Source of the DNA: Bacteroidota bacterium
Lineage (GTDB): Bacteria > Bacteroidota > Bacteroidia > Bacteroidales > WCHB1-69
Reading direction: 5' to 3'
Assembly: GCA_022708105.1 (NCBI GenBank)
Contig: JAKIZI010000003.1
Location: 14,544-78,543 of the forward strand
Length of the DNA: 64,000 nucleotides
The number at the start of each line of letters is the position of its first letter. Position 1 is the stretch's first letter. The notes under the pieces are model-generated. The model was given only the letters and a program-made list of their open reading frames with translations. It was not told the DNA's origin and did no database searches. Position numbers and translations under genes: made by a program. Positions 13,159 to 29,815 of the stretch are shown here, in pieces.

Positions 13159-13168
13159 AAGGGGTCCC

Positions 13169-14566: not shown

Positions 14567-16073
14567 GGCGTATGTAGTTAAAAGCGTTTCCAAAATTATC
14601 TATAATGTCCGAGGCAATAAGACTTTCCCATGATTGTTGTTCCAAAGCAAAATCTCCGGCCAATCCGTGAATATAGGTTCCTAAAACGGCTGCGGCCGAA
14701 CAAGAGTAGCCCTTCGCGGCCAGTGCCAAAAGAAGTCCGGTGAGCACATCTCCGCTGCCCGCCGTGGCCATCCCCGGATTGCCGGTGGTGTTGACCAGTA
14801 ATTTGCCGTCGGGAAGGGCAATCACACTGTAAGCCCCTTTCAAAATCATAATTACTCCGTATCGAACCGCGAATTGCTGTAACTTTTCCCAACGATGGAA
14901 GTCATGATCGGCTTTCCCGTTCAACTTTTCAAATTCTTTGAAGTGGGGCGTCAAAATGCTATTCTGCGGCAAATAGGCCAAGTAGGTCTTGTGTTCCGCT
15001 AAAATGTTGAGCGCATCCGCATCTAAAATAATAGGGGAGTGAATATCATCCAGCAGGTTTTTGAGACCGCTCACTGTTTTGGGGTGTCGGCCGATGCCCG
15101 GGCCAACCGCAATGCTGTGGTACGGACTGTCCGAAAGTTCTATTCCGGAAAAACATTGCTCCTCTCGGTCGGGACTCCAAATCGCTTCAGGAACGGCTCC
15201 GGCCAGAAGCAAAGTGTTTCGTTTAGCCGTATGGACAGTAACTTTCCCGATTCCGCCCCGCAGGGCACTTCGTGCGGCAAGGATAGCGGCTCCCGGCATT
15301 GTCTCCGAGCCCGCAATCAGCAAACCGTGTCCATTACTTCCCTTATGGTCAAAAAGATGGGGTGTGCGTAAAAATAAGGAGGCCGTCTCACGGTCAATCA
15401 GCTTGGCGATTGGTTTTGTCCCGTCGGGGAGTATCAACCCGATATCTACAATGGTGCATTTTCTTACAGAATGAGCATTTTCCGGCATCACGTAAGCTTG
15501 CTTGAGCCATTGAAAAGTTAAAGTTAAAGTGGCACGAACAACCGGATGGTGCTCCGGAGTATGGTTATCGGGAAAAAGACCGGAAGGCACATCAACTGCT
15601 ACTATGGTTGCGTTGAGGTGGTTTATAAAGTCTATTGCTTCTGCATAATAGCCCTTCGCGGGTTTCGAAATGCCGATTCCGAAAATGGCATCTATTATTA
15701 AAGGGTGTTGCGAAAGTTCAACAGAGCCCGAAAAAGACAACAAAGCGGCACGGCTGTTTCGGGAAGTCAATTCCTTGAAACGTTCCCGATTATGCGCACA
15801 ATCGGGACTGTGTTGCTCTTGCTCGCTAACGGAAATGGCTGTTACAGGCAACTGCTCCTCGGCTAAAAGCCGGGCAATGGCAAACCCATCCCCTCCGTTA
15901 TTGCCGGGACCGCAAAAAATAAAAATGCCATCATAATCATCCAATAGGAGTATTGATTTCAAGGTATCGGTAAATCGGGTAGCCGCGCGTTCCATGAGCG
16001 CAAGTGACGAAATTGCCTCCTGCTCCATCGTCCATTGTTCACTTGCCCGAATCTGTGCAACACTCAAAATCAT
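14556..16073 (-). CDS. nnr: bifunctional NAD(P)H-hydrate repair enzyme (epimerase/ADP-dependent dehydratase)
   Basis: 505 aa. YjeF_N motif CGPGNNGGDG. C-terminal kinase-like domain with GSGDVLTG. Confidence 0.85.
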   Translation of the reverse strand: MILSVAQIRASEQWTMEQEAISSLALMERAATRFTDTLKSILLLDDYDGIFIFCGPGNNGGDGFAIARLLAEEQLPVTAISVSEQEQHSPDCAHNRERFKELTSRNSRAALLSFSGSVELSQHPLIIDAIFGIGISKPAKGYYAEAIDFINHLNATIVAVDVPSGLFPDNHTPEHHPVVRATLTLTFQWLKQAYVMPENAHSVRKCTIVDIGLILPDGTKPIAKLIDRETASLFLRTPHLFDHKGSNGHGLLIAGSETMPGAAILAARSALRGGIGKVTVHTAKRNTLLLAGAVPEAIWSPDREEQCFSGIELSDSPYHSIAVGPGIGRHPKTVSGLKNLLDDIHSPIILDADALNILAEHKTYLAYLPQNSILTPHFKEFEKLNGKADHDFHRWEKLQQFAVRYGVIMILKGAYSVIALPDGKLLVNTTGNPGMATAGSGDVLTGLLLALAAKGYSCSAAAVLGTYIHGLAGDFALEQQSWESLIASDIIDNFGNAFNYIRHEE

Positions 16074-16175
16074 AATTACTTTAAATTTAGTACGTGCAAA
16101 AATACAAATAATTAAAAAGCTTTTTATCTTCTGATATAAAATTGGTGCAAAAGTTGGTTGCTTTCTTTTTTTTAT

Positions 16176-16183
16176 TAAATTTG
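16176..16183 (+). promoter_or_regulatory. -7 box TAAATTTG
   Basis: 53 nt upstream of ATG 16236. Confidence 0.4.
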
Positions 16184-16235
16184 CCGCTTAAAAAATCGAA
16201 CAAAACAATTATTTAATCATTAAAAACTAATTATT

Positions 16236-17765
16236 ATGTTTAAAAATCACCCAAAAGGATTGCTGGCAGCTGCACTTGCCAACATGGGCGAACGATTCGG
16301 TTTCTACACGATGATGGCGATTTTGTCTTTATTTCTCATGGCAAAATTTGGACTCACCGGTGGTGAAGCAGGATTGATCTACTCCATTTTTTACTTTTCT
16401 ATTTATGTGCTCGCTTTTGTCGGCGGCTTAATTGCCGATAAAACCAAGAATTTTAAAGGAACTATTTTGGTGGGACTTATTCTTATGGCAATAGGGTATT
16501 TTCTTATAGCCATCCCCACAGGAACTCCTGTGCCGGCAGATAAGTTTATATTCTTCCTCACCATGACCTGTCTGGGACTCTTCGTCATTGCCTTTGGTAA
16601 CGGCTTGTTTAAAGGGAACTTGCAAGCATTGGTAGGCCAAATGTACGACAATCCCAAATACTCTCAAATGAGAGATTCCGGTTTCCAATGGTTCTACATG
16701 TTTATCAATGTGGGTGCTATTTTTGCTCCGTTGGCTGCAGTAGGTGTTCGTAACTGGTGGGTAACTTCTCACGGTTTTCAATACAACCCCGACCTCCCGG
16801 CACTCTGTCACCAACATTTGGGTGGTACATTACAGGGCGAAGCCCTCGTTCGTTATCAAGAATTGGCAGTTAATGCCGGTGCTAAAGGCACAGACCTTAC
16901 CGTTTTTGCACACGATTATCTTAATGTATTTGCTACCGGTTTTCACTATGCCTTTGCCGTAGCTATTTTTGCGATGGCTATTTCTTTGGTAATCTACTTG
17001 GCCAATAAGAAAAAATTCCCCAATCCTGCCGATAAAAATAAAGCGGTTGGTGTTGCTGAAGGCGAAATGAGCGTTGCTGAAGTTAGACAACGTCTCTATG
17101 CTCTCTTTGCAGTTTTTGCAGTAGTGATTTTCTTCTGGTTTTCTTTCCATCAAAACGGATTAACCTTAACCTTCTTCGCCCGAGATTATACCGATTTAAG
17201 CCAAATTAGACTCAACCTTGGCTTTACAACCCTTGAAGGAGCAGAACTCTTCCAATCAATGAACCCATTCTTTGTGGTATTTCTGACACCCGTTATTATG
17301 GCTTTCTTTGGTTGGCTCCGTGCAAAAGGCAAAGAACCTTCCACCCCCAAGAAAATTGCTATCGGGATGTTGATTGCCGCTATTGCATACGTGGTAATGG
17401 CTATCGGCTCTATGGGACTTCCTGCTTTTACCTCTGTACAGGCACAAGGCGGTTTAAACGATCTCCAACGTATTACTCCGTTCTTGTTGATAGGAACCTA
17501 TTTTATCCTTACCGTGGCTGAATTATTTATCTCTCCCCTCGGCATCTCTTTTGTTTCTAAAGTAGCTCCTCCAAAATATCAGGGTATGATGCAAGGATTG
17601 TGGTTATGTGCTACTGCAGTTGGAAATCAGCTCCTTTTCATCGGTGCAATTCTTTATGAACACATCCCGATTTGGGCTACATGGACAGTCTTTGTTGTAG
17701 CTTGTCTTATCTCCATGAGCGTAATGCTCTTCATGTTAAGATGGCTCGAAAAAGTAGCTAAATAG
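16236..17765 (+). CDS. POT/PTR2 family di-/tripeptide:proton symporter
   Basis: 509 aa, polytopic. N-terminal signature GERFGFYTMMAIL and the FxxFYxxINxG-like block WFYMFINVGAIFAP. Confidence 0.8.
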   Translation: MFKNHPKGLLAAALANMGERFGFYTMMAILSLFLMAKFGLTGGEAGLIYSIFYFSIYVLAFVGGLIADKTKNFKGTILVGLILMAIGYFLIAIPTGTPVPADKFIFFLTMTCLGLFVIAFGNGLFKGNLQALVGQMYDNPKYSQMRDSGFQWFYMFINVGAIFAPLAAVGVRNWWVTSHGFQYNPDLPALCHQHLGGTLQGEALVRYQELAVNAGAKGTDLTVFAHDYLNVFATGFHYAFAVAIFAMAISLVIYLANKKKFPNPADKNKAVGVAEGEMSVAEVRQRLYALFAVFAVVIFFWFSFHQNGLTLTFFARDYTDLSQIRLNLGFTTLEGAELFQSMNPFFVVFLTPVIMAFFGWLRAKGKEPSTPKKIAIGMLIAAIAYVVMAIGSMGLPAFTSVQAQGGLNDLQRITPFLLIGTYFILTVAELFISPLGISFVSKVAPPKYQGMMQGLWLCATAVGNQLLFIGAILYEHIPIWATWTVFVVACLISMSVMLFMLRWLEKVAK

Positions 17766-17789
17766 TTCTAATATTTGAATTTATATATG

Positions 17790-17828
17790 AAACAGGATGT
17801 TTTTCGGAATATCCTGTTTTTTTTTCTT
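17790..17828 (+). terminator. rho-independent terminator of the POT gene
   Basis: Stem aaacaggat/atcctgttt (17790-17798 and 17811-17819), followed by a T-run. Confidence 0.65.
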
Positions 17829-18060
17829 TTGGGCGTGTCGGCTTCGCCGCCAGCGTCCGGTTCCAAGTCCGCAGCCGGTAGTCGTGTGTCCGCAAAGCTG
17901 CAAAAGGAGCTTCCTACGGTCGCTCTTTTGCAGCAGCGTCCACATCGCCTCCCGTCTTTGCGGGCTTTCCACCTACCGCTTCACGCGGGGGACGGCAAAA
18001 CCTTTGCGTCTTAGCGCCTTTGCGGTGATTTTTTCTACCGGGCTTTTCTCCCTGTCGGGA
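17829..18060. other. GC-rich non-coding block at the left edge of the island
   Basis: Compositionally distinct from its AT-rich surroundings. Only overlapping Arg/Pro/Cys-rich ORFs on both strands. Internal 10-bp inverted repeat gctgcaaaag/cttttgcagc (17897-17906 and 17925-17934). Confidence 0.5.
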
Positions 18061-18079
18061 CAATAACCTGCATTTTGGT

Positions 18080-18255
18080 TGCTTATGTGTCGCAGTGGGT
18101 TGCTTATTTGCCGAGGGTGCCTGCTTATTTGCCGAGGGTGCCTGCTTATTTGCCGAGAGTGTCTGCTTATCTGCCGAGAGTGCCTGCTTATTTGCCGAGA
18201 GTGTCTGCTTATCTGCCGAGAGCGGCTGCTTATTTGCCGAGGGTGTCTGCTTCGA
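18080..18255. repeat. tandem array A: 8 copies plus a partial copy of the 21-bp unit TGCTTATTTGCCGAGGGTGCC
   Basis: Counted directly. Copies start at 18080 (degenerate), 18101, 18122, 18143, 18164, 18185, 18206 and 18227. Variation is limited to a few unit positions. Confidence 0.95.
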
Positions 18256-18256
18256 C

Positions 18257-18477
18257 TTACATTTCTATTCCTACCGGTTACATTTCCATTCCTACCCGTT
18301 ACATTTGCGTTCCTACCGGTTACATTTCTATTCCTACCAGTTACATTTCTATTCCTACCCGTTACATTTGCATTCCTACCCGTTACATTTGCGTTCCTAC
18401 CGGTTACATTTGCGTTCCTACCGGTTACATTTCTATTCCTACCCGTTACATTTGCATTCCTACCGATTGTATTTCAG
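18257..18477. repeat. tandem array B: 10 copies plus a partial copy of the 21-bp unit TTACATTTCTATTCCTACCGG
   Basis: Counted directly. Copies start every 21 bp from 18257 to 18446. The array abuts array A with a 1-bp gap. Confidence 0.95.
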
Positions 18478-18562
18478 AATTGATTAAGTTGTTGAACATG
18501 CGACCCCGAAAGGACCGAACATTTCTTCCCGTCTTTGCGGACTTATAGCCGGACGCCGAGAC

Positions 18563-18897
18563 ACCCCCCAAAAATATTCAAAAAAATATTTTTTACTTAA
18601 CAAAAACCTCGTATATTTGTCCCCAATAACCCTCCGTGTTTCCCCAATGAAAAAACAACCAACCGTTGAAGCAAGAAGCAATCAAGCACTTCGGAACACC
18701 CCCGAAAACAGCCGCTACACCTTCAGCGGCAAGGAACGGGATAACGAAACGGGGTACTCCTACTTCGGCGCACGGTACTACAACTCGGATATAAGCATCT
18801 GGCTGAGTGTTGACCCCTTGAGTGACAAGTACCCGAACTTGACTCCGTATGCTTATTGTGCCAATAATCCTATTATTTTGGTGGACCCGGATGGGAG
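18563..18897 (+). repeat. cassette leader copy 1 (non-coding segment, promoter box, ATG, shortened Rhs-core fragment)
   Basis: Shares ...ACAAAAACCTCNTATATTTGTCCCCAATAACCC... and the Rhs-core coding sequence with copies at 20175, 22680 and 24395. Confidence 0.85.
18612..18619 (+). promoter_or_regulatory. -7 box TATATTTG in leader copy 1
   Basis: 28 nt upstream of ATG 18647. The same box is conserved at the same relative position in all four leaders. Confidence 0.5.
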
Positions 18898-19543
18898 GAA
18901 GATAGTGATTAAAGGAGATAATGGAGAATCTATAACGTATACCGCTAATATGGAGTATGAGGGTGATGATAAATTTATTAGTAAAAAAGTTGCAAACTAT
19001 AATAAAATTTATGCTTCTAAGGCAGGAGCAAAACTTCTTGACAGACTTATAGGTTCAAAGAAAACTTATACAATGGATAATAAGAGAGGAAAAACAGATG
19101 AGCCTCATGCACATTCGAGTGGAGTTCATTATAATGGCTATAATGAAATAAATTATGATATGCACGAGCTATTTCATAATTATCAGTATGATATGAATCA
19201 AGGAGGAGCTAGTATTGAAAATGAGGTAGAAGCATATCTGTTTGAGTCAATAGTTTGTAAAGAATTAGAATTACCTGGCGGGGCATTGTTAGGAATGGTT
19301 ACCCCTAAAAAAGATCCAAATTCAAAATCTTTTAATGAGATAAAAGACTCTTCTTTGGGTTTCTTGCTATGCACAGAAATGACAGAAGATGACTTCAATA
19401 AGAATTTTGATAATGTAGTAAAAGGTTTTAAATCTTATTCTGCAGTGAATAGAACGGGGATATACAATAAGTATCCTATTTCTTTACCTGGACGTAAAAA
19501 AAACTTAGTTAAAGATTTTTATCCAATCAAAAGCCATAAATAA
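18647..19543 (+). CDS. Rhs repeat-associated core fragment fused to an HExxH (zincin-like) C-terminal toxin domain; no Rhs shell
   Basis: Core motif YTFSGKERDNETGYSYFGARYYNSDISIWLSVDPLSDKYP...YCANNPIILVDPDGR. The C-terminal domain contains HELFH (19163-19177) with Glu residues about 18 aa downstream. ATG 18647 is preferred over the TTG at 18617. Confidence 0.75.
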   Translation: MKKQPTVEARSNQALRNTPENSRYTFSGKERDNETGYSYFGARYYNSDISIWLSVDPLSDKYPNLTPYAYCANNPIILVDPDGRKIVIKGDNGESITYTANMEYEGDDKFISKKVANYNKIYASKAGAKLLDRLIGSKKTYTMDNKRGKTDEPHAHSSGVHYNGYNEINYDMHELFHNYQYDMNQGGASIENEVEAYLFESIVCKELELPGGALLGMVTPKKDPNSKSFNEIKDSSLGFLLCTEMTEDDFNKNFDNVVKGFKSYSAVNRTGIYNKYPISLPGRKKNLVKDFYPIKSHK

Positions 19544-20010
19544 TGATGAAAAAATTACTTACAACCGTTTGTTTATTATTGATAATAAACATGACCTATA
19601 CTCAATCTGAGAGACTTAGAGATACATTCTATTACATTAGGCCTAATAGTTGTGGCTATTATTATACCTTCTCTGAAGATACATTATATACTAATCTGAT
19701 TGACAAAAAGATAAAAGCAGTAATACAAGTTGATTTGTATTACAAAAAAAAAACAGATGTATTGCTGAAAACAAAAGCGGAAATTTTGAAAATTTTTGAT
19801 TATGAGACAAATAAAATTCTTTATGATTTTATTTGGGAAACAGCAAAAGATACCTCGGAATATGCTAATCTTATACCTTTTCTGGATGAATATTCATATA
19901 AAAGAATGAGTCAAGCAACTATTATTAGAAAGCAAAAAAGAAGAAAAGAGTGTTCAATCCTCCCATCATACATTATTGTTCAAATTTTTCCATTGCATAA
20001 ATTACCATAG
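19543..20010 (+). CDS. candidate cognate immunity protein 1 (secreted)
   Basis: 155 aa. Start overlaps the toxin stop (TAATG). Signal peptide MMKKLLTTVCLLLIINMTYTQS. Function is inferred from position only. Confidence 0.5.
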   Translation: MMKKLLTTVCLLLIINMTYTQSERLRDTFYYIRPNSCGYYYTFSEDTLYTNLIDKKIKAVIQVDLYYKKKTDVLLKTKAEILKIFDYETNKILYDFIWETAKDTSEYANLIPFLDEYSYKRMSQATIIRKQKRRKECSILPSYIIVQIFPLHKLP

Positions 20011-20174
20011 ATTGTCTCGTCCTAAAATAGGTTTACACAAAACGCCCCAAATTATGGAAGAAAAAAGTGAATTTATTTTAGGATTTGTGCTAACAAGCAT
20101 CTATTGTTATAATGACCCCCTATTTTAGGATAACAAATAAAGAAAACTATCAACAAATAAAAATAGTCGCTTCC

Positions 20175-20613
20175 ATTTTTAACAAAAATCCCCTATATTT
20201 GTCCCCAATAACCCTCATATCCTCCAATGCAAAAACAAGCAACCATAGAAGCAAGAAGCACCCCAATTTTTCGGAACACCCCCGAACCCCTCCGCTACTT
20301 CTACCACCCCGACCATATAGGTTCTACTTCGTGGGTAACGGACAGTGCGAAGAACGGGATACAGTATTGCGAATATTTACCGTATGGCGAACCTTTCCTC
20401 GACCAGCGGAGTACCACGTGGAACAGCCGCTACACCTTCAGCGGCAAGGAACGGGATAACGAAACGGGCTACTCTTATTTCGGAGCGAGGTACTACAACT
20501 CGGATTTGAGCATTTGGCTGAGTGTTGACCCTTTGAGCGACAAGTCCCCTGGGTGGTCTCCATACAATTATTGTTATAATAATCCTATTAGAATTACTGA
20601 TCCGGATGGGCGG
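20175..20613 (+). repeat. cassette leader copy 2 (most complete Rhs-core fragment)
   Basis: Same non-coding segment and core as the other copies. Contains RYFYHPDHIGSTSWVTDSAKNGIQYCEYLPYGEPFLDQRSTTWNSRYTFSGKERD. Confidence 0.85.
20194..20201 (+). promoter_or_regulatory. -7 box TATATTTG in leader copy 2
   Basis: 26 nt upstream of ATG 20227. An in-frame TAA at 20209-20211 shows the ORF does not continue upstream. Confidence 0.5.
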
Positions 20614-21270
20614 GAAGGAGAAGATAATTTAGATTGGATTAAAAATATAAAAACAGGACAATACGAATGGAATGATAATGTTACTTCCGCTGAAAATACT
20701 CCCGTAGGATATAAATACATTGGTAAGAATGATAACGATATTTTAACAGATTTAAATCTTGACTCTCGCAATCAAAATCAGAGTGTGAAAAGATTTGCCG
20801 GTGGCTTTGCTGGTGATCATACTACAGGTAAAGCTGCTCCCATGTATGCAAAATCGGAAGTGACAGGGACATTGAATGTTTCAGCAGTTGTGTCTTATAA
20901 TCCTGAAAATAGAACGTCAACCAATGCAGCTGGAAAAACTTTTGAAGGGGTGAAGTTTGAGGCCTATTTGATAGCTCTAAATATGGGGACAAATGATGAT
21001 GCAAAATTGAATTATAAAGGAGCATTAGGAATAACTGTTGATGGGAAAACAACATATAGCCCGCTTAGAGCACCTACATCTTCATACTGTATTCCTGCAG
21101 GTTCAACTATCAGCTCTGCTTCTGTTATGTATCCGGCTAGTTCTATCACTTCAGGGATGAATTTTCAGACGGCAACTATTTCAACAGGAGCTCCAAATCC
21201 TAATTTACAATTTAATGCTCGTCCTATAAAAATAAATTTTAATCTAATGAAATATTCTCTTATAAAATAA
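20227..21270 (+). CDS. Rhs repeat-associated core fragment fused to a C-terminal domain of unknown type
   Basis: 347 aa. Core ends at NNPIRITDPDGRE. The ~215-aa C-terminal part is Ser/Thr/Asn/Gly-rich and has no catalytic motif I recognise. Confidence 0.7.
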   Translation: MQKQATIEARSTPIFRNTPEPLRYFYHPDHIGSTSWVTDSAKNGIQYCEYLPYGEPFLDQRSTTWNSRYTFSGKERDNETGYSYFGARYYNSDLSIWLSVDPLSDKSPGWSPYNYCYNNPIRITDPDGREGEDNLDWIKNIKTGQYEWNDNVTSAENTPVGYKYIGKNDNDILTDLNLDSRNQNQSVKRFAGGFAGDHTTGKAAPMYAKSEVTGTLNVSAVVSYNPENRTSTNAAGKTFEGVKFEAYLIALNMGTNDDAKLNYKGALGITVDGKTTYSPLRAPTSSYCIPAGSTISSASVMYPASSITSGMNFQTATISTGAPNPNLQFNARPIKINFNLMKYSLIK

Positions 21271-21275
21271 ATATA

Positions 21276-21935
21276 ATGAAAAACTATTTAATTATTATGT
21301 TTTGTATTTTGCTATTTTATAGTTCTTCTGCACAAGAGGATGCCTTTTGTGAGCAGTATAATACTATGAGCTCCGAATTAATTTTTGAATTTCAGATGTA
21401 TGGAGATACTGCTAAACTTGATTCAGCTCTATATTATATAGAAATTGCGATTCCCAAATGTCCCAAATATGAAGTATTACTAATAACACGCAAACTTGGC
21501 GTTTTATCTGTTAAGCATGATTATGATGCAGGAATAGCCTATATTCCTTCTATTAGCGATTCATTATTGGATTTTTATCCTTATTACAAGACAATCCTTT
21601 TGAAAAGGTTTTATGCTATGAAAAGTTTGTATGAAGGGGACTCTATTCAACGAGATCAATACGTATATTTTATTATAGAAGATATAGCTCCTTTTATTAT
21701 TGCGAACCAAAGCAGAATAGATACATTGTGTAAAAATGATAATATATCATTTATTTTACAGAATACATTATCTTTTGCATTAAGTCAATATTATTATTAC
21801 AGATCAATTATTGAAGATAAGACAACAATATTGAATGAAATGAAGTTATTGAAACAAAAAGGATATAATGCTGAATATATAGAATTGATAGAAGCAATAT
21901 GTGAAGAAGATTTTTTAATTTTTCAGTTATTTTAA
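21276..21935 (+). CDS. candidate cognate immunity protein 2 (secreted)
   Basis: 219 aa, 5 nt after the toxin stop. Signal peptide MKNYLIIMFCILLFYSSSAQ. Helical, repeat-like composition. Confidence 0.5.
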   Translation: MKNYLIIMFCILLFYSSSAQEDAFCEQYNTMSSELIFEFQMYGDTAKLDSALYYIEIAIPKCPKYEVLLITRKLGVLSVKHDYDAGIAYIPSISDSLLDFYPYYKTILLKRFYAMKSLYEGDSIQRDQYVYFIIEDIAPFIIANQSRIDTLCKNDNISFILQNTLSFALSQYYYYRSIIEDKTTILNEMKLLKQKGYNAEYIELIEAICEEDFLIFQLF

Positions 21936-22086
21936 ATCATTCACGGGGACATTTTCCTTGCAAAGTATAATAGTTCCTCAAAATAGGACAACAAAATAAA
22001 CATTTTAACCAACCACAGAATCCAACAAAATATGAAATAAAAAGTTTATCTAATAAACCGATTTATTAATTTAATATTAAAGCATT

Positions 22087-22467
22087 ATGTCAGTTAAGTA
22101 TGTAGTAACAGCGAAAGGGAACCCAAGTAATCCCGAAGCACCCAAGAAGTTTTATGCACAATGCAAAAGTGTAGGCGAAATCACGTTAAAGGCATTGGGC
22201 AAAGAAATCTCACAACGCAGCACGGTAAATACAGCCGATACGCTGGCGGTTTTGGAATCGTTAACACAGTTAATGTCAGAGCGTTTGGCAGAAGGCCAAA
22301 TTGTACGCTTCGGCGATTTTGGTTCTTTCCAAATCAGCGTAAGCAGCGAGGGTGCCGAAACAGCAGATAAGTTTCATTCAGGTATGATAAAGAGCAAAAA
22401 AATCACATTCCGTCCGGGAATTGATTTGCGGGAAATGCTCAATAATTTACGATTTGAGAGGATGTAA
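22087..22467 (+). CDS. HU-family (Bacteroidales-type) DNA-binding protein
   Basis: 126 aa. N-terminal KYVVTAKGNPSNPEAPKKFYAQ and the GQIVRFGDFGSFQISV beta-arm region are typical of the ~125-aa HU-like proteins found in Bacteroidales variable regions. Confidence 0.7.
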   Translation: MSVKYVVTAKGNPSNPEAPKKFYAQCKSVGEITLKALGKEISQRSTVNTADTLAVLESLTQLMSERLAEGQIVRFGDFGSFQISVSSEGAETADKFHSGMIKSKKITFRPGIDLREMLNNLRFERM

Positions 22468-22480
22468 AATAGGGGTTATA

Positions 22481-22568
22481 AAAACGTTTAGACGATTTGT
22501 TGAAAACGTTTAGACGATTTGTTGAAAACGTTTAGACGATTTGCTGAAAACGTTTAGACGATTTAGTG
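22481..22568. repeat. four tandem 22-bp repeats AAAACGTTTAGACGATTTGYTG (iteron-like)
   Basis: Copies at 22481, 22503, 22525 and 22547. Each contains the palindrome AAACGTTT. A related sequence, TTTACGATTTGAG, forms the last codons of the HU gene. Confidence 0.95.
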
Positions 22569-22679
22569 GTTTTCTGAAATCCTTTATTCTCAAAGGGTTG
22601 CAAAGGTAAAAAAAAGAGAAAAACAGAGAACCGAAAAAGAAGGAGTTTGTCCGTTTTTCTGCGTGATGTGAAGCCTGCA

Positions 22680-23226
22680 CACCCAAAAAATATTCAAAAA
22701 AATATGTTCACATAACCAAAAAAACTTATATTTGTCTCCAAAATTCCCTCATATCCTTCAATGAAACAACAAGCAACAGTCAAAAAGAGAAGCAACCCCA
22801 TTTCCATGAACACCGCCGAAACCCTCCGCTACTTCTACCACCCCGACCATATAGGTTCGACTTCGTGGGTAACGGACAGTGCGAAGAACGGAATACAGTA
22901 TTGCGAATATCTTCCAGCTAAAAAGCTTCGCTTTTTTTCCTCCTTGGCGTTCGGTAATGAAAAACAGGTTTTTCATCACGCTCACTGCCTGCGTCGGTTC
23001 GGCGAACCTTTCTTAGACCAGCGGAGCACCACGTGGAACAGCCGCTACACCTTCAGCGGCAAGGAACGGGATGGCGAAACGGGCTACTCTTACTTTGGCG
23101 CACGCTACTACAACTCGGATATAAGCATCTGGCTATCTGTTGACCCTTTGAGCGACAAATACCCGAATCAATCGAATTATGTATATTGTAGCAATAACCC
23201 AATAATGAGGATTGACCCGAATGGTG
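22680..23226 (+). repeat. cassette leader copy 3 (with an internal 85-bp insertion)
   Basis: The upstream CACCCAAAAAATATTCAAAAAAATAT segment is shared with copy 1. Rhs-core sequence is shared with copy 2 except for 22916-23000. Confidence 0.85.
22727..22734 (+). promoter_or_regulatory. -7 box TATATTTG in leader copy 3
   Basis: 27 nt upstream of ATG 22761. Confidence 0.5.
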
Positions 23227-23801
23227 AGGATGATTATTTTAATGAAAATGGGGTGTATTTAGGATCAGATTTTTCTAAAACAGACTTTGTGAGAGTCATG
23301 TCTCAAGAAAATTGGGATAATACAAAAATGATCTTTAATGAAAATTCAGAAGATGAATTTGAAACCATTAATCAAGATTTAGGAATTTTATTTTCTAATG
23401 TTGTTTCAGAATCAAATATATCTGATGAGGTAGCATTGAAAATTTATGGACACTATAATACAACAGATTGTAAATTACAAGCTATGAACAAGGCTGAAGA
23501 TAATGGAGAAAGCGGTGGAATGAGAATTAATGCAACTGGTAATACACCCACTCATATAGAAATAAAAATAGAAGGGAATAAAAGAACCAAAGTATCAGAT
23601 CATTTTAATGAAATAGTAAACATGTTTTCACATGAAGAACAGCATGAAAAAGATATTAAATCAGGTAACATAGGTAACGAAAATAAAACAGAAGAAAGAG
23701 CTATAAATGCTCAAAAAGAACATTCTTCTTTTTCTAAGACACGTCCTGAATATCAAAAAGGGGTTAAAAAGTATGGAATAAAATATGGCCTAAACTTTTA
23801 A
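22761..23801 (+). CDS. Rhs repeat-associated core fragment (interrupted by an in-frame 27-codon net insertion) fused to an HExxH-containing C-terminal domain
   Basis: 346 aa. Core ends at NNPIMRIDPNGED. The C-terminal domain contains HEEQH (23631-23645). Confidence 0.7.
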   Translation: MKQQATVKKRSNPISMNTAETLRYFYHPDHIGSTSWVTDSAKNGIQYCEYLPAKKLRFFSSLAFGNEKQVFHHAHCLRRFGEPFLDQRSTTWNSRYTFSGKERDGETGYSYFGARYYNSDISIWLSVDPLSDKYPNQSNYVYCSNNPIMRIDPNGEDDYFNENGVYLGSDFSKTDFVRVMSQENWDNTKMIFNENSEDEFETINQDLGILFSNVVSESNISDEVALKIYGHYNTTDCKLQAMNKAEDNGESGGMRINATGNTPTHIEIKIEGNKRTKVSDHFNEIVNMFSHEEQHEKDIKSGNIGNENKTEERAINAQKEHSSFSKTRPEYQKGVKKYGIKYGLNF

Positions 23802-23810
23802 AATTATCTA

Positions 23811-24413
23811 ATGAAAAAAATTCTTTTAACTGTTTTTGTCTTATTTATTGGACTTAGAACGTTCGCTCAACTGAAAATAGAGATAGATACTTTAGTAATA
23901 AGTAATATATCATGTATTTTGGCTAAAGATTTTTCTAAAAGACATTTTGACTCTTTTTTAGACACAGGCCCCGATGGTAAATTCTACATTTCAATCACCA
24001 ATGAGAGTAATACATTTCAATTAATAGAATATAGAGAATGGGAATTTGGATATATTTTTTGTTATGATAATAAGTTTTATACTTTTCAATTTATTTCTTT
24101 GATAGATCCATTCACAAGAGTACTTTTAAAGCCTCAAGAAAAATTTTCTTTTAGTTTTTACTGTGAAATATTATTGTGTTCTGATTTTTTTAAAAATAAT
24201 GATACAAATTTTTCAAATGAAATGATAGAGATAATCCCTACTATAAGGGTTTATGGCATTTCAAAGAATAAAAATTTGTTTTTTTCAAATATCTTTAGAA
24301 ATCTTAGGATTAATAAAAAACCCAATACGGATGAGTATCAAGACAATTTAAATACAAAAAGATTTCTGAGAAAATTATCAAAAAAAATGGGAAAAAACAT
24401 TTTTTACTTTTAA
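23811..24413 (+). CDS. candidate cognate immunity protein 3 (secreted)
   Basis: 200 aa, 9 nt after the toxin stop. Signal peptide MKKILLTVFVLFIGLRTFAQ. Confidence 0.5.
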   Translation: MKKILLTVFVLFIGLRTFAQLKIEIDTLVISNISCILAKDFSKRHFDSFLDTGPDGKFYISITNESNTFQLIEYREWEFGYIFCYDNKFYTFQFISLIDPFTRVLLKPQEKFSFSFYCEILLCSDFFKNNDTNFSNEMIEIIPTIRVYGISKNKNLFFSNIFRNLRINKKPNTDEYQDNLNTKRFLRKLSKKMGKNIFYF

Positions 24414-24425
24414 CAAAAAACCTCC

Positions 24426-24433
24426 TATATTTG
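24426..24433 (+). promoter_or_regulatory. -7 box TATATTTG in leader copy 4
   Basis: 24 nt upstream of ATG 24457. Confidence 0.4.
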
Positions 24434-24456
24434 TCCCCAATAACCCCATGCTCCCA

Positions 24457-24670
24457 ATGCAAAAACAACCATCCATCGAAGAGAGAAGCACCCCAATTTT
24501 TCGGAACACCCCCGAAAAGCTCCGCTACTTCTACCACCCCGACCATATAGGTTCTACTTCGTGGGTAACGGACAGTGCGAAGAACGGGATACTCTTACTT
24601 CGGCGCACGCTACTACAACTCGGATATAAGCATTTGGCTGAGTGTTGACCCTTTGAGCGACAATTATTGA
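24457..24670 (+). pseudogene. terminal Rhs-core stub (leader copy 4) with internal deletion and frameshift; no toxin domain
   Basis: MQKQPSIEERSTPIFRNTPEKLRYFYHPDHIGSTSWVTDSAKNGI, after which the frame is lost. The shifted frame reads YSYFGARYYNSDISIWLSVDPLSDNY-stop (TGA 24668-24670). Confidence 0.8.
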
Positions 24671-24690
24671 AGTTTCTCTGATGTAATTGG

Positions 24691-27600
24691 TTATTGTACC
24701 ACAATCTTTTGAACTAGTTTGCCTTTGCAGGTACTCATTTCCATTAAGTAAATTCCTGTTTCAAGTTGTCCTGCATTAATTTCCATGCTTTGAATCCCCC
24801 CGTTTAAGTAACAAGGTTGCCGATAAACCATTCTCCCGGTAATGTCGGAAATAAGAATAAGTCCCTCTTCTGCTTCAGAAGTTTCAATATTGAGGATAAA
24901 TTTTCCATTATTAGGATTCGGATAGATATATCCGCTATAAGTTACGCCCGATTGATAACAGGGGATGTTTACGCTGTTCCAGAGGGCAATATTATCAATA
25001 TATACATTGTCCAATATGAAATTCTGGAAATAATAGGTCATATTTGCAGCCAGGCATTTAGATTGGAAGGTAAGCATAAACACATCTCCTGTGTAAGGAG
25101 TAAGATCTATCACCTTTTGTTGAAATGGATCAGTTGATGCAAGATTCGGAATAAAAGTTTCACTGATGGGCTCATTATCAACTAATAATCTCAACATGCT
25201 TGAATAGCTCAAATCATAAGAATCCGGTATTGACCCTCCAAGCAACATAGCATAGGTGTCTTTTCCTGAAGTTTGTTTTAAATTAAATGCCAATGCCAAC
25301 TCCTGATAATCCGTTGCATCAATACAAAAATGAGCTTCACTGTCCATCTCTTTGTTATATTCCCAAATGTCATCATCTGAAGGAAATTCTAAACTATTCA
25401 TATATCCCATAGGATCTCCTTTGGCTGTCATTTTGAGTACTCTTCTGTCGGAATAGTCGGGTAGAGTATAGGCATAAGCATTGGAGTATTTATTGGTATC
25501 AACATAAAAATAATCCTGATCTCCCGTTTGATCAAAAGTGACGGATGAGATTTGATTAAGGAATTTTGGTTTATAGACCTCCTTGGTGACGTTATTATTG
25601 GCAGTATTCAAATCATTGCTGTTTTCGGTGAATACACGAAGTGTATTTTGAGCTGCTAAGGTAAAATTTCCCCCTTGTGTGAATGTATATTCAAGCGTAT
25701 CTGACGATGTCATGGCTTCGGTGAGCTCAATAACTTCGGTGATTTTATTGGCTCCGTTGATGGTAAAAGAAATTACTACCGTATCACCAGGTTCCGTCTG
25801 GTCACAAACATTGAAAATGATATTTGCAATTACAGGAGTTTGTTCATCCAAATGGCAGGAAGAAGTTGGAGCAATAATTTCAGATACCCCGAAATCACTG
25901 TTCTGATATACGCGGTTGGTAAAACGATAATTGGTATATGTTGAGGTATACACATCACTATTTAATCCCAAAGAAAGATCAAGTCGGTACTCTCCGGGAA
26001 CAGAAAAATCATAACCGCTGGGCAATGTTACTGTAAATGGTCCGGGAGCAACATCCTGGTTTAATACGAGCGTATCAAAAATGTCTAATGATTGATTTAC
26101 CTGAACTTTAAAAAAGAGTTTTGTGCCGACACGAAGCGTGTCATTGCAACTATTATAAAGCAGATCAAGGGTAATCGATTCCTCATTTTGCAGGGCGCAA
26201 TCAGTTACCGGTGTTACAACGGAAGTGATGTGAATGACAGAGTCGCTGAAAGGATAGCCGAGTCCGACCGCGGCCCATGCTTGTGCCACAGCATATTGTT
26301 CCATAGAGCATGTGCCGAACAGGTCTTCTGCCACTTCCAAAGAATATAAACAGGCTTCTTGATAATCGGAATAAGGTGTTAAATATTCGGTTAAAAGGCT
26401 GTACGCAATTAATTCGCTTTTTTCAGGAGTGATTCCGGTTACTTCGTATGAAGTTCCCATATCATTAACTCCACTTCCGCCAACGGTCAGCAAGTAAAAC
26501 CAATAATTGCCGACACCGCTGTTGGTATGAACTCCGCCGTAATCTTCTGTGCCGGAGACCCAATAGTTTCCAAGGTATGTATCCGGATTTTCAAATCGAT
26601 TGGGATCAGACAAATCGCGGAAAGGACTATTCAATTCTTCTCCGATAGTCCATTGCAGTTGTCCGGTAGCGTAGCGATGAACCATCACTCCAAAAATATC
26701 GCTGAATGATTCATTGAGCGCTCCGGGCTCATCTTGGTACACCAAATTGGCAGAGTATTCCGTAACGCCATGCGTGATTTCATGTCCACAAACTGATATG
26801 AAAGTAAAGGGGTAATTATTTACTCCGTCTCCATAAAACATCGCAGTTCCGTTCCAAAATGCATTTTGCATATTCTGTCCCGTATGTACGTAACTTAAAA
26901 GCTGAGTCCCTTGATTGTTATAACTATTCCGACCATGAGTGTAATAATAGTAATCATAAGTTATTTCTGCTCCGTAATGGGCAGAATTGGCGATTACATC
27001 ACTGTCAAAATAAGCATCGGCTTCATATAAATCAATGGCATTTTCAAGCGGAACATAAATCAAATCTCCTTCATTGTTCATTGATTTGGTAAGGATTCCG
27101 TCTCCGGCTCCGCGGGAGTTGCTGCGAAACATATAAAGATTACTTGCCAATGAGTCAACTGTGATGGTTTGTTCTCCGTTATATCGGGTAACTGCTTGAA
27201 CTTCGATGTTGGCTGAAGCCTTTTTTGTGAAATGATGCACAATTTCTCCATTATTGGCATCTACATAATAAATTTCGGTACAAATTTCAGGTGCAATGAC
27301 AGATAAAGTGATTTTATAGACCAAACGATAGTTTTTGGCCATAAAAGAATGTTCTTTGTCATAAATTTCTAAAGTGGGAGTAGGGTAGTAGGTGGCCGTT
27401 GTGTCTTTGCGAATGATTTTGAGGTCGGCTTCCATAGATGGAGACTGCCAAGCATAACGATCTGCTTTGGAGTTGTTTAATGCAATAATAATTACTTCTT
27501 CTTTTGTAAGATTTGGAGTTACATTAAGCGATAATCCCGATACAATAGCTCCGGTTACCCGATACACTTTTGCATTTTTTTCATGTAAAATAAGTTGAGC

Positions 27601-27894
27601 TCCGTCAACGGGAATTTGGTCAAAATACTGTTGTAAACGATGATGCGCTTTTCCGTTTCGAGTTGGTGAAACATATATTTCTCTCATCTCATCATAATTC
27701 CCCAATCCAAAATAGAGTTGATATTTTTCAAAAAAATGAGCTGCCGGAATTTGATAATCCGTTTTGATATTAATAATAGCACCTTCTCCTTTCAGAACTG
27801 CAATTTTTTGCAAAGTTTCGGGATAATGATGAGACTGTCCGTAGATGATATTTCCTAAAAGGATAATCACCCATAGTAGAATAATTTTTTTCAT
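24691..27894 (-). CDS. M4 (thermolysin-like) zinc metalloprotease with large C-terminal extension and T9SS sorting domain
   Basis: 1067 aa with a signal peptide. Active-site VCGHEITHGVTEY and GALNESFSDIFG motifs. The last ~80 aa (YIYPNPNNGKFIL...GIYLMEM...KIVVQ) resemble a T9SS CTD. Confidence 0.85.
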   Translation of the reverse strand: MKKIILLWVIILLGNIIYGQSHHYPETLQKIAVLKGEGAIINIKTDYQIPAAHFFEKYQLYFGLGNYDEMREIYVSPTRNGKAHHRLQQYFDQIPVDGAQLILHEKNAKVYRVTGAIVSGLSLNVTPNLTKEEVIIIALNNSKADRYAWQSPSMEADLKIIRKDTTATYYPTPTLEIYDKEHSFMAKNYRLVYKITLSVIAPEICTEIYYVDANNGEIVHHFTKKASANIEVQAVTRYNGEQTITVDSLASNLYMFRSNSRGAGDGILTKSMNNEGDLIYVPLENAIDLYEADAYFDSDVIANSAHYGAEITYDYYYYTHGRNSYNNQGTQLLSYVHTGQNMQNAFWNGTAMFYGDGVNNYPFTFISVCGHEITHGVTEYSANLVYQDEPGALNESFSDIFGVMVHRYATGQLQWTIGEELNSPFRDLSDPNRFENPDTYLGNYWVSGTEDYGGVHTNSGVGNYWFYLLTVGGSGVNDMGTSYEVTGITPEKSELIAYSLLTEYLTPYSDYQEACLYSLEVAEDLFGTCSMEQYAVAQAWAAVGLGYPFSDSVIHITSVVTPVTDCALQNEESITLDLLYNSCNDTLRVGTKLFFKVQVNQSLDIFDTLVLNQDVAPGPFTVTLPSGYDFSVPGEYRLDLSLGLNSDVYTSTYTNYRFTNRVYQNSDFGVSEIIAPTSSCHLDEQTPVIANIIFNVCDQTEPGDTVVISFTINGANKITEVIELTEAMTSSDTLEYTFTQGGNFTLAAQNTLRVFTENSNDLNTANNNVTKEVYKPKFLNQISSVTFDQTGDQDYFYVDTNKYSNAYAYTLPDYSDRRVLKMTAKGDPMGYMNSLEFPSDDDIWEYNKEMDSEAHFCIDATDYQELALAFNLKQTSGKDTYAMLLGGSIPDSYDLSYSSMLRLLVDNEPISETFIPNLASTDPFQQKVIDLTPYTGDVFMLTFQSKCLAANMTYYFQNFILDNVYIDNIALWNSVNIPCYQSGVTYSGYIYPNPNNGKFILNIETSEAEEGLILISDITGRMVYRQPCYLNGGIQSMEINAGQLETGIYLMEMSTCKGKLVQKIVVQ

Positions 27895-27978
27895 TTTTTA
27901 AATTTTAAGTTGCAAAGATAATTAATATAATATGTTAAGTGTAAAATCTTAAAAAAAATATTTATTAAAAAATATTGG

Positions 27979-28396
27979 TGTCCGGTAAAAAATAATTGTC
28001 CCCAAAAATAATGTACGACCTCGCGGAAGGCTTGCGACCAAAAGTTCCTAAAAGAATTATCGAAATTTTCTTTTTTCTCTTTCGTACTTTTGTCTTGATA
28101 CAAAAGGACCAAAAAATCAAGGTAAAAAGAATGCCGCCCGCTCTGCCAAGCAGCTTAGCGGTTCTAACAAAACAAGGAAACGACAAGCGGTTTTGCAAGA
28201 ACCGCTAAGCTGTTTGTCATTCACAGCACCGCCGCCTCTGCTTTTTGCCGGGCCGACGCGCGTGCTTCGTGGCAAATTATATTGTGACCACCAGAGCTAA
28301 CTCTTTTTGATTAGGGGGCTTGCTTTTTGAAAAACAAAATCGTGCACTTGATTATCAAGTACTTTTGTTTGATTTTTCTCTGTTTTTTACCGGACA
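27979..28396. repeat. 418-bp MITE-like non-coding element bounded by perfect 14-bp terminal inverted repeats
   Basis: TGTCCGGTAAAAAA at 27979-27992 and its exact reverse complement at 28383-28396. GC-rich core with a perfect 15-bp stem (28151-28165 and 28198-28212). Only short junk ORFs inside. Confidence 0.6.
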
Positions 28397-28521
28397 ACAA
28401 TAAATTTGATAATATTATTTTTTTGGCGTGCCGGTTTCCCCGTGTTTATCTCCTTGATTGTATATTATATATGAATTATGAATAATTGTTTTATTTTTTA
28501 TTGAGAGTAAAAAAAAAGATG

Positions 28522-28529
28522 TATCTTTG
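28522..28529 (+). promoter_or_regulatory. -7 box TATCTTTG upstream of rpsU
   Basis: 48 nt upstream of ATG 28577. Confidence 0.5.
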
Positions 28530-28576
28530 CACCCTGTAATTTAAAATATTAATTTAACAAAGAAAGAGGTATTTTT

Positions 28577-28771
28577 ATGATCGTTGTTCCCGTTAAAGAA
28601 GGCGAAACCGTAGATCGGGCCCTTAAAAAATTAAAAAGAAAATTTGAAAAAACCGGTGTTGTAAAAGAGTTGAGAAATCGTCAGAAATTTACAAAACCAA
28701 GTATTATCAAAAGGGAGCAAAAATTAAAAGCGATTTATATTCAGCAGTTATTAAACAAACAAGAAGAATAA
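28577..28771 (+). CDS. rpsU: 30S ribosomal protein S21
   Basis: 64 aa. MIVVPVKEGETVDRALKKLKRKFEKTGVVKELRNRQKFTKPS is a typical S21 sequence. Confidence 0.9.
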   Translation: MIVVPVKEGETVDRALKKLKRKFEKTGVVKELRNRQKFTKPSIIKREQKLKAIYIQQLLNKQEE

Positions 28772-28793
28772 TAGCCCGAAAATAAATTTGCAG

Positions 28794-28829
28794 AAAAAAA
28801 GTTATCCAAATACGGATAACTTTTTTTTT
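28794..28829 (+). terminator. rho-independent terminator after rpsU
   Basis: Stem gttatcc/ggataac (28801-28807 and 28814-28820), flanked by an A-run and a 9-T run. Confidence 0.7.
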
Positions 28830-28845
28830 ATTATCTAAATTTTAC

Positions 28846-28853
28846 TATATTTG
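28846..28853 (+). promoter_or_regulatory. -7 box TATATTTG
   Basis: 21 nt upstream of ATG 28874. Confidence 0.45.
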
Positions 28854-28873
28854 CTTGTTGATTAAGTTGAAGT

Positions 28874-29815
28874 ATGGATGTAATCACGAAATTTCTCAAT
28901 TATTTAGAATTCGAAAAGCGTGTTTCCCCACACACGATAACTTCTTATGGCAATGATTTAAAGCAGTTTTTTACTTATTATATTTTTATTCTTTTTCCGG
29001 AAATTGCTGAAAATCCCGATCCCGAAATTATTGGAGAAAAATTGAAAAATATTGATATTTCTTCCATAGAAGCACCATTAATTCGTATATGGATGGTAGA
29101 TTTATTAGAAAATAATATTGATGAAAGGAGCGTAAATCGTAAAATTAGTGCCCTGAAATCCTTTTATAATTATCATCTCAAAATAGGAACAGTAGAGAAA
29201 AATCCTATGCTGCAAATTCGATGTTTAAAAGTGCAAAAACGTCTTCCCGTTTATATAGAAGAAGAAGAAGTATCCTTTCTTTTTTCCCGGGATTTATTTC
29301 CTGATAGTTTTGAAGGAATCAGAGACAGAACCATTTTGGAACTCTTTTATGCGACCGGAATGCGTCTTTCTGAATTAATCAATCTCAAACATTCGGATAT
29401 TGATTTGTATGAAAGTACGGTTAAAGTCTTAGGAAAACGAGATAAAGAGCGAATCATTCCCTTTGGAAAAACGATGAAAGAACTTTTAGTTTTTTATATT
29501 GCCCAAAAAGAAGATTTTTTTGACGGATTAAACCAAAAGGATTATTTATTTGTTACAAATATATCCAATAAAATGTACCCTAAAGCCGTTTATAGGATAG
29601 TAAACAAATATCTTGACATGGTTACGAATTTGAGTAAGAAGAGTCCGCACATTATTCGCCACACCTTTGCAACGCACATGTTGAACAGAGGCGCAGATAT
29701 CAATGCCATTAAAGAACTTTTAGGTCATTCAAGTTTGGCTGCGACCCAAGTATATACCCATAACTCTATTGAAAAATTAAAATCAATCTATAAACAAGCC
29801 CATCCGCGGGCATAA
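28874..29815 (+). CDS. tyrosine recombinase, XerC/XerD family (housekeeping context)
   Basis: 313 aa. N-terminal SAM-like core-binding domain. Catalytic-domain motifs ATGMRLSEL, HIIRHTFATH and LLGHSSLAATQVYTH. Sits in the conserved rpsU-xer-hpf arrangement. Confidence 0.8.
   Translation: MDVITKFLNYLEFEKRVSPHTITSYGNDLKQFFTYYIFILFPEIAENPDPEIIGEKLKNIDISSIEAPLIRIWMVDLLENNIDERSVNRKISALKSFYNYHLKIGTVEKNPMLQIRCLKVQKRLPVYIEEEEVSFLFSRDLFPDSFEGIRDRTILELFYATGMRLSELINLKHSDIDLYESTVKVLGKRDKERIIPFGKTMKELLVFYIAQKEDFFDGLNQKDYLFVTNISNKMYPKAVYRIVNKYLDMVTNLSKKSPHIIRHTFATHMLNRGADINAIKELLGHSSLAATQVYTHNSIEKLKSIYKQAHPRA

Follow-up and report, generated by a model that had tools for sequence, protein, structure and literature searches.

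The window analysed here is a 64-kb stretch of a Bacteroidota chromosome (contig JAKIZI010000003.1), and the subject of this report is an island at 18560-24670 that carries repeated, truncated Rhs genes, with all array features on the + strand. We consider it probable that the island is an array of orphan Rhs C-terminal domain (CT)/immunity cassettes equipped with portable expression leaders. An earlier reading of the letters alone (the sequence-only reading) had described four direct copies of a shared leader, and these were confirmed by repeat finding, by alignment and by a count of the exact 21-mer TATATTTGTCYCCAAWAWYCC. The 21-mer was present at exactly four sites in the window (18612, 20194, 22727 and 24426) and 0 times in 100 shuffles, and the perfect -7 box reported for the leaders was thereby recovered at all four copies. 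The copies lie at about 18563, 20150, 22680 and 24380, and each comprises a ~60-nt non-coding segment and a ~76-nt coding segment. The leader ATGs lie at 18647, 20227, 22761 and 24457, which places them 23-27 nt past the box.

Three full open reading frames (ORFs) begin at these ATGs (cassette 1, 18647-19543; cassette 2, 20227-21270; cassette 3, 22761-23801). All three matched the TIGR03696 model Rhs_assc_core, with E values of 1.7e-18, 4.6e-19 and 5.5e-18, respectively, and the proposed Rhs core was thus verified (5e-19 to 6e-18). The Rhs portion of each cassette consists of the last ~105 core codons, and the shell is absent from all three ORFs. GC content is ~42-44% in leader and core and 25-32% in the CT/immunity segments. 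The array genes are co-directional, with the leaders repeated between them, as follows:

18562-18694, +, leader 1: type A upstream part, -7 box at 18612-18619, ATG at 18647, 16 non-Rhs codons
18695-19543, +, rest of the cassette 1 ORF: core tip at 18695-18895, CT1 at 18896-19540
19543-20010, +, putative immunity gene 1: 155 aa, signal-peptide-like N-terminus, start overlapping the toxin stop (TAATG)
20107-20274, +, leader 2: type B upstream motif TTAGGAYAAYAAA, -7 box at 20194-20201, in-frame TAA at 20209-20211, ATG at 20227
20275-21270, +, rest of the cassette 2 ORF: complete core tip at 20275-20610, CT2 at 20611-21267
21276-21935, +, putative immunity gene 2: 219 aa, predicted signal peptide, type-B leader remnant downstream at 21976-21997
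22087-22467, +, gene for a HU-HIG family DNA-binding protein (PF18291, E 1.3e-34; TIGR01201)
22459-22564, +, four copies of the 22-bp tandem repeat AAAACGTTTAGACGATTTGYTG
22678-22808, +, leader 3: type A, -7 box at 22727-22734, ATG at 22761
22809-23801, +, rest of the cassette 3 ORF: core tip with an 81-nt insertion at 22916-22996, CT3 at 23226-23798
23811-24413, +, putative immunity gene 3: 200 aa, predicted signal peptide, 3' end overlapping the start of leader 4
24371-24666, +, leader 4 and stub: -7 box at 24426-24433, ATG at 24457, core from 24505

The sequence-only reading had assigned the same distal core to every copy. This core is complete in cassette 2, and the other copies are altered. 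In copy 1, a 135-nt in-frame deletion flanked by two CCGCTAC repeats has removed RYFYHPDHIGS...TTW, and copy 3 contains the 81-nt in-frame insertion between YLP and GEPF, with two hairpins. The fourth copy is a stub, as had been stated: a 110-nt deletion shifts the frame and leaves 66 codons (ORF 24448-24648), and homology stops at 24666, 24 nt from the stop codon of an M4 peptidase gene. This copy is clearly decaying. The frameshifting deletion of the stub is bounded by AACGGG(A/C)TAC direct repeats. The two core-tip deletions (window 18695-18720 in copy 1 and 24580-24600 in the stub) both lie between short direct repeats, which points to slippage or microhomology-mediated deletion.

Three CTs follow the boundary motif NNPI..DP(D/N)G, and no pair of them gave a BLASTP E value below 2. 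The three downstream ORFs showed no significant mutual similarity by BLASTP, and each opens with a hydrophobic, signal-peptide-like N-terminus ending in ...TQ/AQ, as read from the sequence. The claim of three unrelated CTs, each followed by a small secreted ORF, is therefore upheld. At the boundary between toxin and immunity gene, the stop and start codons share 1 nt (TAATG) or are separated by 5 or 9 nt, and 4-nt overlaps occur in the related loci L005, L025 and L053 described below. The position, tight coupling and diversity of the downstream ORFs fit cognate immunity genes; no Pfam family matched their products. Look-ups of immunity genes 2 and 3 returned only 1-2 kb contigs, broken at repeats.

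CT1 contains the motif HELFH (HExxH) and has a weak Peptidase_M91 match (E 0.063). Over the core and the first ~50 CT residues, cassette 1 is 62% identical to an M91-annotated orphan of L053. A PDB sequence search with CT1 found nothing. CT1 is a probable zincin/M91-like metallopeptidase toxin. CT3 also carries an HExxH motif (HEEQH). CT2 (219 aa) matched only itself in a search of 5.8 billion protein clusters and had no Pfam match; it is apparently beta-rich, and its single-sequence AlphaFold (AF2) model was unusable (pLDDT 31). CT2 may represent a new toxin family.

Related loci and the full-length rhs gene

Related loci were recovered from several assemblies by a metagenome scan with a pattern across the leader/core junction and by exact-protein look-ups. 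The most telling of them is L053 (ERZ18242344 NODE_424, 84 kb), whose first 8130 nt are 94.5% identical to window positions 9718-17842. Directly after the same POT transporter gene, L053 carries a DUF8202 gene tagged for the type IX secretion system (T9SS), a gene for a 2985-aa SpvB/Rhs protein (P0309), an immunity gene and three leader-bearing orphans, one with a Peptidase_M91 CT and one with a Toxin-JAB1 CT. Because the flank matches at 94.5% identity and the same POT gene precedes rhs, this is the same chromosomal site, and the site of the array is that of a complete rhs locus of the SpvB/TcB-TcC type in a close relative. A more distant organism, represented by L025, encodes a 2960-aa SpvB/FG-GAP/TcdB_midN/RHS protein with its immunity gene, downstream of which lie two leader-bearing orphans and their immunity genes, and then a third leader. 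The main gene and orphan 1 of L025 share only a 121-nt segment of the distal core (91.7% identity).

The sequence-only reading had found no full-length rhs gene. This holds for the 64-kb window, where no such gene is present; it does not hold for the site, as the 2985-aa Rhs protein of L053 has the same core and is encoded at the same position. A tblastn search of the window with the 2960-aa Rhs protein matched only residues 2640-2752, at the four tips, with no shell remnant; therefore the island contains no shell, no type VI secretion system (T6SS) gene and no island-associated recombinase. Given the full-length rhs in L053 and the same layout in L025, the cassettes belong, as orphans, to an ordinary rhs locus that lacks its main gene here. 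Neither the main rhs gene nor the preceding DUF8202/T9SS gene is present in the window, and the main gene was either lost here or gained in L053. The right flanks differ, with an M4 peptidase gene in the window and an S9 peptidase gene in L053.

Orphan modules of this general kind are known from enterobacteria, where rhs-CT/rhsI and cdiA-CT/cdiI modules lie downstream of full-length genes, and orphan rhs-CT/rhsI arrays and their recombination are already classical (Poole et al. 2011, PMC3150448; Koskiniemi et al. 2014, PMC3967940). Both they and the window array have a 5'-truncated core before the CT boundary, a variable toxin with a cognate immunity gene (putative in the window), and tandem arrays in which homologous recombination in the core mobilises or deletes cassettes, and in L025 and L053 the cassettes stand directly downstream of a full-length rhs gene. 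The window array has the core without the shell, and the boundary motif followed by unrelated CTs, that mark the class of orphan arrays; the full-length rhs upstream that also marks it is missing from the window and is found in L053, at the same chromosomal site, and in L025. Two things set the present array apart, in addition to the missing main gene. A non-rhs leader is added at a fixed point, and the Rhs protein is of the SpvB/TcB-TcC type with a T9SS-tagged neighbour, instead of a PAAR/VgrG-linked T6SS effector.

A DUF8202 protein with a T9SS C-terminal sorting domain is encoded beside a giant gene in L053 (8477-9982), L054 (619-2130) and L048 (3873-5387). Its gene is directly upstream of an SpvB-type rhs in L053 and L054 and adjoins an unannotated 2388-aa gene in L048. 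These Rhs toxins may be linked to type IX secretion.

Two parts of the array recur elsewhere. The core insertion of copy 3 is also present in L004, L013, orphans 1 and 2 of L025, L033 and orphan 1 of L053, and the ORF is open in every copy. The insertion is 78 nt long in L025 orphan 1 and L053 orphan 1, and its second hairpin differs in sequence yet is a perfect inverted repeat; folding z-scores of the insertion were weak (-0.5 and -2.0). The order CT2, immunity gene 2 and HU-HIG gene is recorded in short contigs from at least six further samples; it is seen in the two metagenome contigs L039 and L040, and in L043 the ORF at that place is truncated. The type-B remnant at 21976-21997, 5' of the HU-HIG block, suggests that this block interrupted a leader.

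The leader as a candidate expression signal

The leader is ~130-170 nt long and comprises the -7 box TAnnTTTG, a ~25-nt 5' untranslated region (UTR), an ATG and 16 non-Rhs codons. It joins the core in frame at one fixed point (...|NTPE.LRYFYHPDH...), and the five independent sources for which leader DNA is available (the window species, L025, L031, L038 and L053) all have the identical junction. The main Rhs of L053 belongs to the same core lineage as the window tips and reads ...RSRMNLSLLKSL|NTPETLRYFYHPDHIGSTSWVTDSAKNGIQYCEYLPYGEPF... at this point. Nucleotide homology (88-98%) between window copies 2, 3 and 4 and the L053 main gene begins at L053 18048-18050, exactly at AACACCCCCGAA (N-T-P-E), codon 17 of the leader ORF; cassette 2 is 87.7% identical to the main gene from 20274 onward. 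Compared with the leaders, the 120 nt upstream of the junction in the main gene gave a local alignment score of 16, and shuffled sequence gave 14.3-15.0 +/- 2.0-2.3. A word-indexed protein search returned short proteins only, and the leader question was settled by an exhaustive HMMER search together with the L053 locus: full-length proteins aligned only from query residue 11-23 onward, and leader-peptide residues 1-10 aligned only where they were N-terminal.

We conclude from these sequence comparisons that the leader is a non-rhs module whose candidate promoter motif, ATG and first 16 codons are orphan-specific, because homology starts at codon 17, the upstream part of the main gene does no better than shuffles and the HMMER result agrees. 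The repeat unit does extend past the Rhs homology, as the sequence-only reading had proposed, and the in-frame TAA it had placed at 20209-20211 shares the reading frame of the ATG at 20227. That reading had also raised the possibility that the whole leader lies inside a full-length rhs gene; it is absent from the L053 main gene. We rejected the leader as diverged rhs coding sequence: MAFFT paired main-gene CCAATAA and AATGAA with the leader, and the local score equals that of shuffles. The exact 21-mer had only 3 chance matches in a genome collection, in unrelated taxa and with no Rhs context, and therefore this species with this sequence is not represented there. Searches of plasmids, phages and viral contigs gave no match, and thus nothing that points to a mobile-element origin.

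A second conserved N-terminal leader, MPPFLTFYYLCHINPEKIMELL, was observed in other Bacteroidales metagenome contigs. It is fused to the core at the same place (RYFYHPDHLGSSSW; MPPFLTFYYLCHINPEKIMELL-RYFYHPDH) and precedes many different CTs (P0130, P0133, P0145, P0154, P0177 and P0007). Orphan-specific leaders may be a general feature of Bacteroidales Rhs cassettes.

In the window, many first genes have TAnnTTTG, the promoter motif of this genome, at a distance of 14-55 nt upstream. Among 14 leader copies from at least five sources it is perfect in 10, one base off in 2 and absent from 2. The most informative result on the role of the leader came from the codon positions at which copies vary. 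In core codons 23-45, variable sites at positions 1, 2 and 3 number 1, 2 and 9, whereas in leader codons 1-22 they number 16, 11 and 13. This pattern indicates strong protein-level constraint on the core codons and no amino-acid constraint on the leader codons. All 10 distinct copies nevertheless have the ATG and exactly 22 codons before RYFYH with no stops, next to a UTR that has indels. Because ATG, spacing and open frame are kept while the codons vary at all positions, the constraint appears to be on starting translation in frame and not on the peptide itself.

The cassettes might instead be silent displaced orphans, either recombination substrates or decaying remnants, in which the leader has been kept by recent duplication or gene conversion and the box and ATG are incidental. 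Arrays downstream of rhs are indeed the classical situation and are seen in the relatives. The core is 80-98% identical between copies, which makes gene conversion plausible; the leader codons, however, differ by ~25% at each of the three positions, which means that the copies are not of recent date, and a start with fixed spacing and open frame has been kept in 10 of 10 copies despite the UTR indels. Similarly, copy 4 is decaying, yet three ORFs of ~300 codons are intact and tightly coupled to their immunity genes, and the box, although imperfect or missing in 4 of 14 leaders, stands at a distance typical of promoters in this genome. We therefore regard silent cassettes as unlikely.

Comparative evidence favours self-contained expression of the cassettes: the box is perfect in 10 of 14 leaders, the start is conserved in 10 of 10 copies, and toxin stops and immunity starts are tightly coupled. 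The promoter and translation self-sufficiency claimed by the sequence-only reading thus finds support, with the qualifications that follow. We infer that the leader would act as a promoter and that translation would start at the leader ATG.

Several observations weigh against an array of independently expressed cassettes. The promoter assignment consists of a consensus match together with its conservation, and the box departs from TAnnTTTG by one base in L025 orphan 1 and L053 orphan 2 and is absent, with ATG and leader codons kept, from L025 orphan 3 and L012. A scan for intrinsic terminators after the immunity genes detected none (the sigma-70 promoter and terminator scan is uninformative for Bacteroidota), and without terminators, read-through from leader 1 could make internal promoters redundant. 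The high similarity of the copies could come in part from recent duplication or gene conversion rather than from selection. The toxin and immunity roles are assigned by position, the HExxH motifs and one weak M91 match. Finally, a full-length rhs gene may lie elsewhere in the genome, outside the 64-kb window.

Cassette exchange and the flanks of the array

The sequence-only reading had suggested a comparison of strains for changes of cassette, and such a change was found. Conspecific L005 and L006 encode an identical POT protein and have ~97% identical flanks, and in both of them leader 1 and the terminal stub are the same and enclose a single, different cassette (283-aa tip and 84-aa ORF). 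The left part of the comparison between the window and L005 has 0 mismatches at 18500-18743, and divergence sets in at 18744, within the core. Towards the right end, closely spaced mismatches continue to 24490, a position within leader 4, and identity is ~98% beyond it; the stub and its junction are the same in L005. Because the exchanged segment runs from mid-core to mid-leader with no fixed boundary, the comparison indicates that cassettes are replaced from strain to strain by homologous recombination.

Strain-variable arrays shaped by homologous recombination near a polymorphic toxin gene are also formed by the T6SS immunity genes of Vibrio cholerae, which accumulate by sequential effector displacement (PMC5361080), and by tandem immunity paralogues of the type VII secretion system (PMC9484751). 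Those arrays keep mainly immunity genes, whereas here the toxin-tip ORFs are intact and each unit has its own leader.

The array is preceded by housekeeping genes, the last of which is the POT/MFS transporter gene (16236-17765) with its terminator. Beyond this terminator lie an element that we call X (17827-18039), 21-bp tandem repeats (18059-18508) and leader 1. Downstream, on the opposite strand and 24 nt past the stub, is a gene for an M4 metallopeptidase with a T9SS sorting domain (24691-27894), followed by rpsU, a XerC-like recombinase gene (28874-29815) and hpf. The absence of a shell, T6SS gene or integrase from the island, as noted in the sequence-only reading, was borne out by tblastn and gene calls, with the qualification that the XerC-like gene lies 4.2 kb downstream. 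Since it belongs to a ribosome-related cluster and a gene on the opposite strand stands between it and the array, we take it to be a housekeeping gene. An Rfam search of 17000-29000 gave nothing credible. The T9SS sorting domains, the HU-HIG gene, the promoter type and the names borne by homologues all point to Bacteroidota/Bacteroidales.

These flanks bear on whether the leader, or TTAGGAYAAYAAA, is a cassette boundary for a site-specific recombinase encoded elsewhere, in the manner of an integron or of the rAID-1 clusters of Bacteroidales; an attC-like boundary had been one hypothesis of the sequence-only reading. The rAID-1 clusters are defined by a XerD-like recombinase at the 5' end (Ross et al. 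2019, 10.1101/471110; PMC12247911), with at least 44% identity to BF9343_RS08045, immediately 5' and co-oriented, followed by at least two co-directional genes with a GC content of no more than 41% and repetitive intergenic motifs. The array shares with them the Bacteroidota host, the co-orientation of its small genes and the probable defensive role of orphan immunity genes, and shows a broad likeness in low GC content (25-38% in the CT/immunity segments, 42-44% in leader and core) and in repetitive intergenic sequences (10.1101/471110). It differs in having no 5' XerD-like recombinase, in keeping complete toxin domains and in its homologous-recombination signature. Upstream are the POT gene, X and the tandem repeats, and no recombinase-containing cluster of known type abuts the array within the window.

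A short motif recurs ~80 nt upstream of the box (TTAGGAYAAYAAA), with a remnant after immunity gene 2, and this could be read as a boundary; the leader alignment, however, contains no conserved secondary structure (-1.3 kcal/mol, 3 trivial pairs), and the integron hallmarks (IntI with attI, attC hairpins) were not found, as there is no island integrase, no conserved structure and no fixed breakpoint. All orphans share one leader::core junction, which common descent explains, and the strain breakpoints are at differing positions within core and leader. An unrelated short Rhs tip does lie near a tyrosine integrase in another Bacteroidales contig. Here, by contrast, there is no adjacent recombinase, none was called in L005, in 14.8 kb of L025 or within 10 kb either side of the L053 locus, and the only nearby tyrosine recombinase is the XerC-like one of the rpsU-hpf cluster. 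Site-specific recombination at the leader is thus very improbable, and the attC-like hypothesis is not supported.

Two further features occupy the left edge of the island:

17827-18039, +, element X: GC-rich, ~210 nt, non-coding, with a long hairpin
18059-18508, +, two 21-bp tandem repeat families between X and leader 1, the second with five TAnnTTTG boxes

At least three organisms have element X beside rhs loci, where it occurs in both orientations. It is 88.8% identical, inverted, to L053 25346-25133 at the right end of the L053 array, about 80% identical to L054 11-117 upstream of the DUF8202-rhs pair, and also present at L005 ~11590-11805. We rejected a simple inversion as the cause of its orientation relative to L053, since this would also have flipped the array. 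The consensus fold has an energy of -55.8 kcal/mol, with 4 compensatory pairs in 4 sequences, two of which are identical, and no Rfam family matched. X may represent a structured RNA, a palindromic repeat or an element resembling a miniature inverted-repeat transposable element (MITE).

Copy numbers of the 21-bp repeats differ in L005 and L006. The tandem-repeat block is surrounded by a 21-nt inverted repeat (17853-17873 and 18536-18556, 86% complementary), whose arms are the two halves of a GC-rich palindrome that is intact after the POT terminator of L053 (GGGCGTGCCGGC-GACGAA-GCCGGCACACCC). The block is possibly an invertible or insertion-derived segment.

Proposed function and significance of the cassettes

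If the leaders function as their conservation suggests, the leader promoter would transcribe each cassette independently of any main rhs gene. The leader ATG would hold ribosomes on the ~300-codon truncated toxin frame and so avoid polarity, and translational coupling would then let the downstream periplasmic immunity gene be expressed. The truncated toxin, which has neither shell nor export signal, would probably be an undelivered by-product held in reserve. Leader and core together (~450 nt, 80-98% identical between copies) would form a homology arm for RecA-type recombination, which would delete, duplicate or swap cassettes and, with a main gene present, fuse a new CT to it.

Expression of Rhs-CT/immunity pairs from internal promoters has a precedent in Salmonella, where both main and orphan rhs genes contain an internal P2 promoter and the Rhs-CT/RhsI pairs are type II toxin-antitoxin (TA) modules (Starsta et al. 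2020, PMC7043789). There, as in the window, a promoter (here a candidate motif) and an internal start codon stand before the CT boundary, the promoter is conserved before many different CTs, and the CT/immunity pair lacks the delivery part. The Salmonella promoter lies inside the rhs coding sequence and is common to main and orphan genes, whereas the motif described here is located outside the shared rhs core, in an orphan-specific leader that the full-length gene of this core lineage does not have. The novelty of autonomous cassette expression, as put forward in the sequence-only reading, is therefore reduced by the Salmonella promoters (PMC7043789) and retained in so far as the leader is appended and specific to orphans.

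The same precedent raises the possibility that the cassettes are selfish, TA-like modules, whose truncated cytoplasmic toxins are neutralised by the immunity proteins and addict the cell to each cassette. In Salmonella, main and orphan pairs with an internal promoter do behave as type II TA modules (PMC7043789), with expression demonstrated. The ORFs here are likewise intact with start codons of their own, and the cassettes appear to outlast the main gene, if its absence reflects loss. The predicted location of the proteins argues the other way: all three immunity proteins have predicted signal peptides, so that they would be periplasmic and would not meet a cytoplasmic toxin, and the truncated toxins have no export signal. 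A TA-like role is accordingly doubtful, and we consider addiction distinctly unlikely.

Returning to the orphan array with expression leaders, a more far-reaching proposal can be put forward tentatively, as a possibility that is rather less likely than not. The leader might be a dedicated, portable expression adaptor of a self-propagating cassette family that is spread by homologous recombination alone, with each unit expressing its own immunity gene. Such a family would be a recombinase-free, RecA-driven counterpart of rAID or integron immunity islands and would persist after the delivery gene had been lost. As the MPPFLTFYYLCHINPEKIMELL-RYFYHPDH leader family precedes many CTs, such adaptors might represent a general design among Bacteroidota.

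These findings leave the general view of polymorphic toxin loci unchanged. The fixed leader::core junction provides a sequence signature for such cassettes in metagenomes, where assemblies usually break at repeats, and the retention of ATG and open frame without amino-acid constraint yields a testable prediction on anti-polarity and translational coupling. Should the leaders prove active, the orphan Rhs cassettes of Bacteroidota would be units with expression of their own, as opposed to a silent reservoir. A set of periplasmic immunity proteins would then stay on after loss of the delivery gene, which would explain the maintenance of the array and would link orphan toxin arrays to acquired interbacterial defence.

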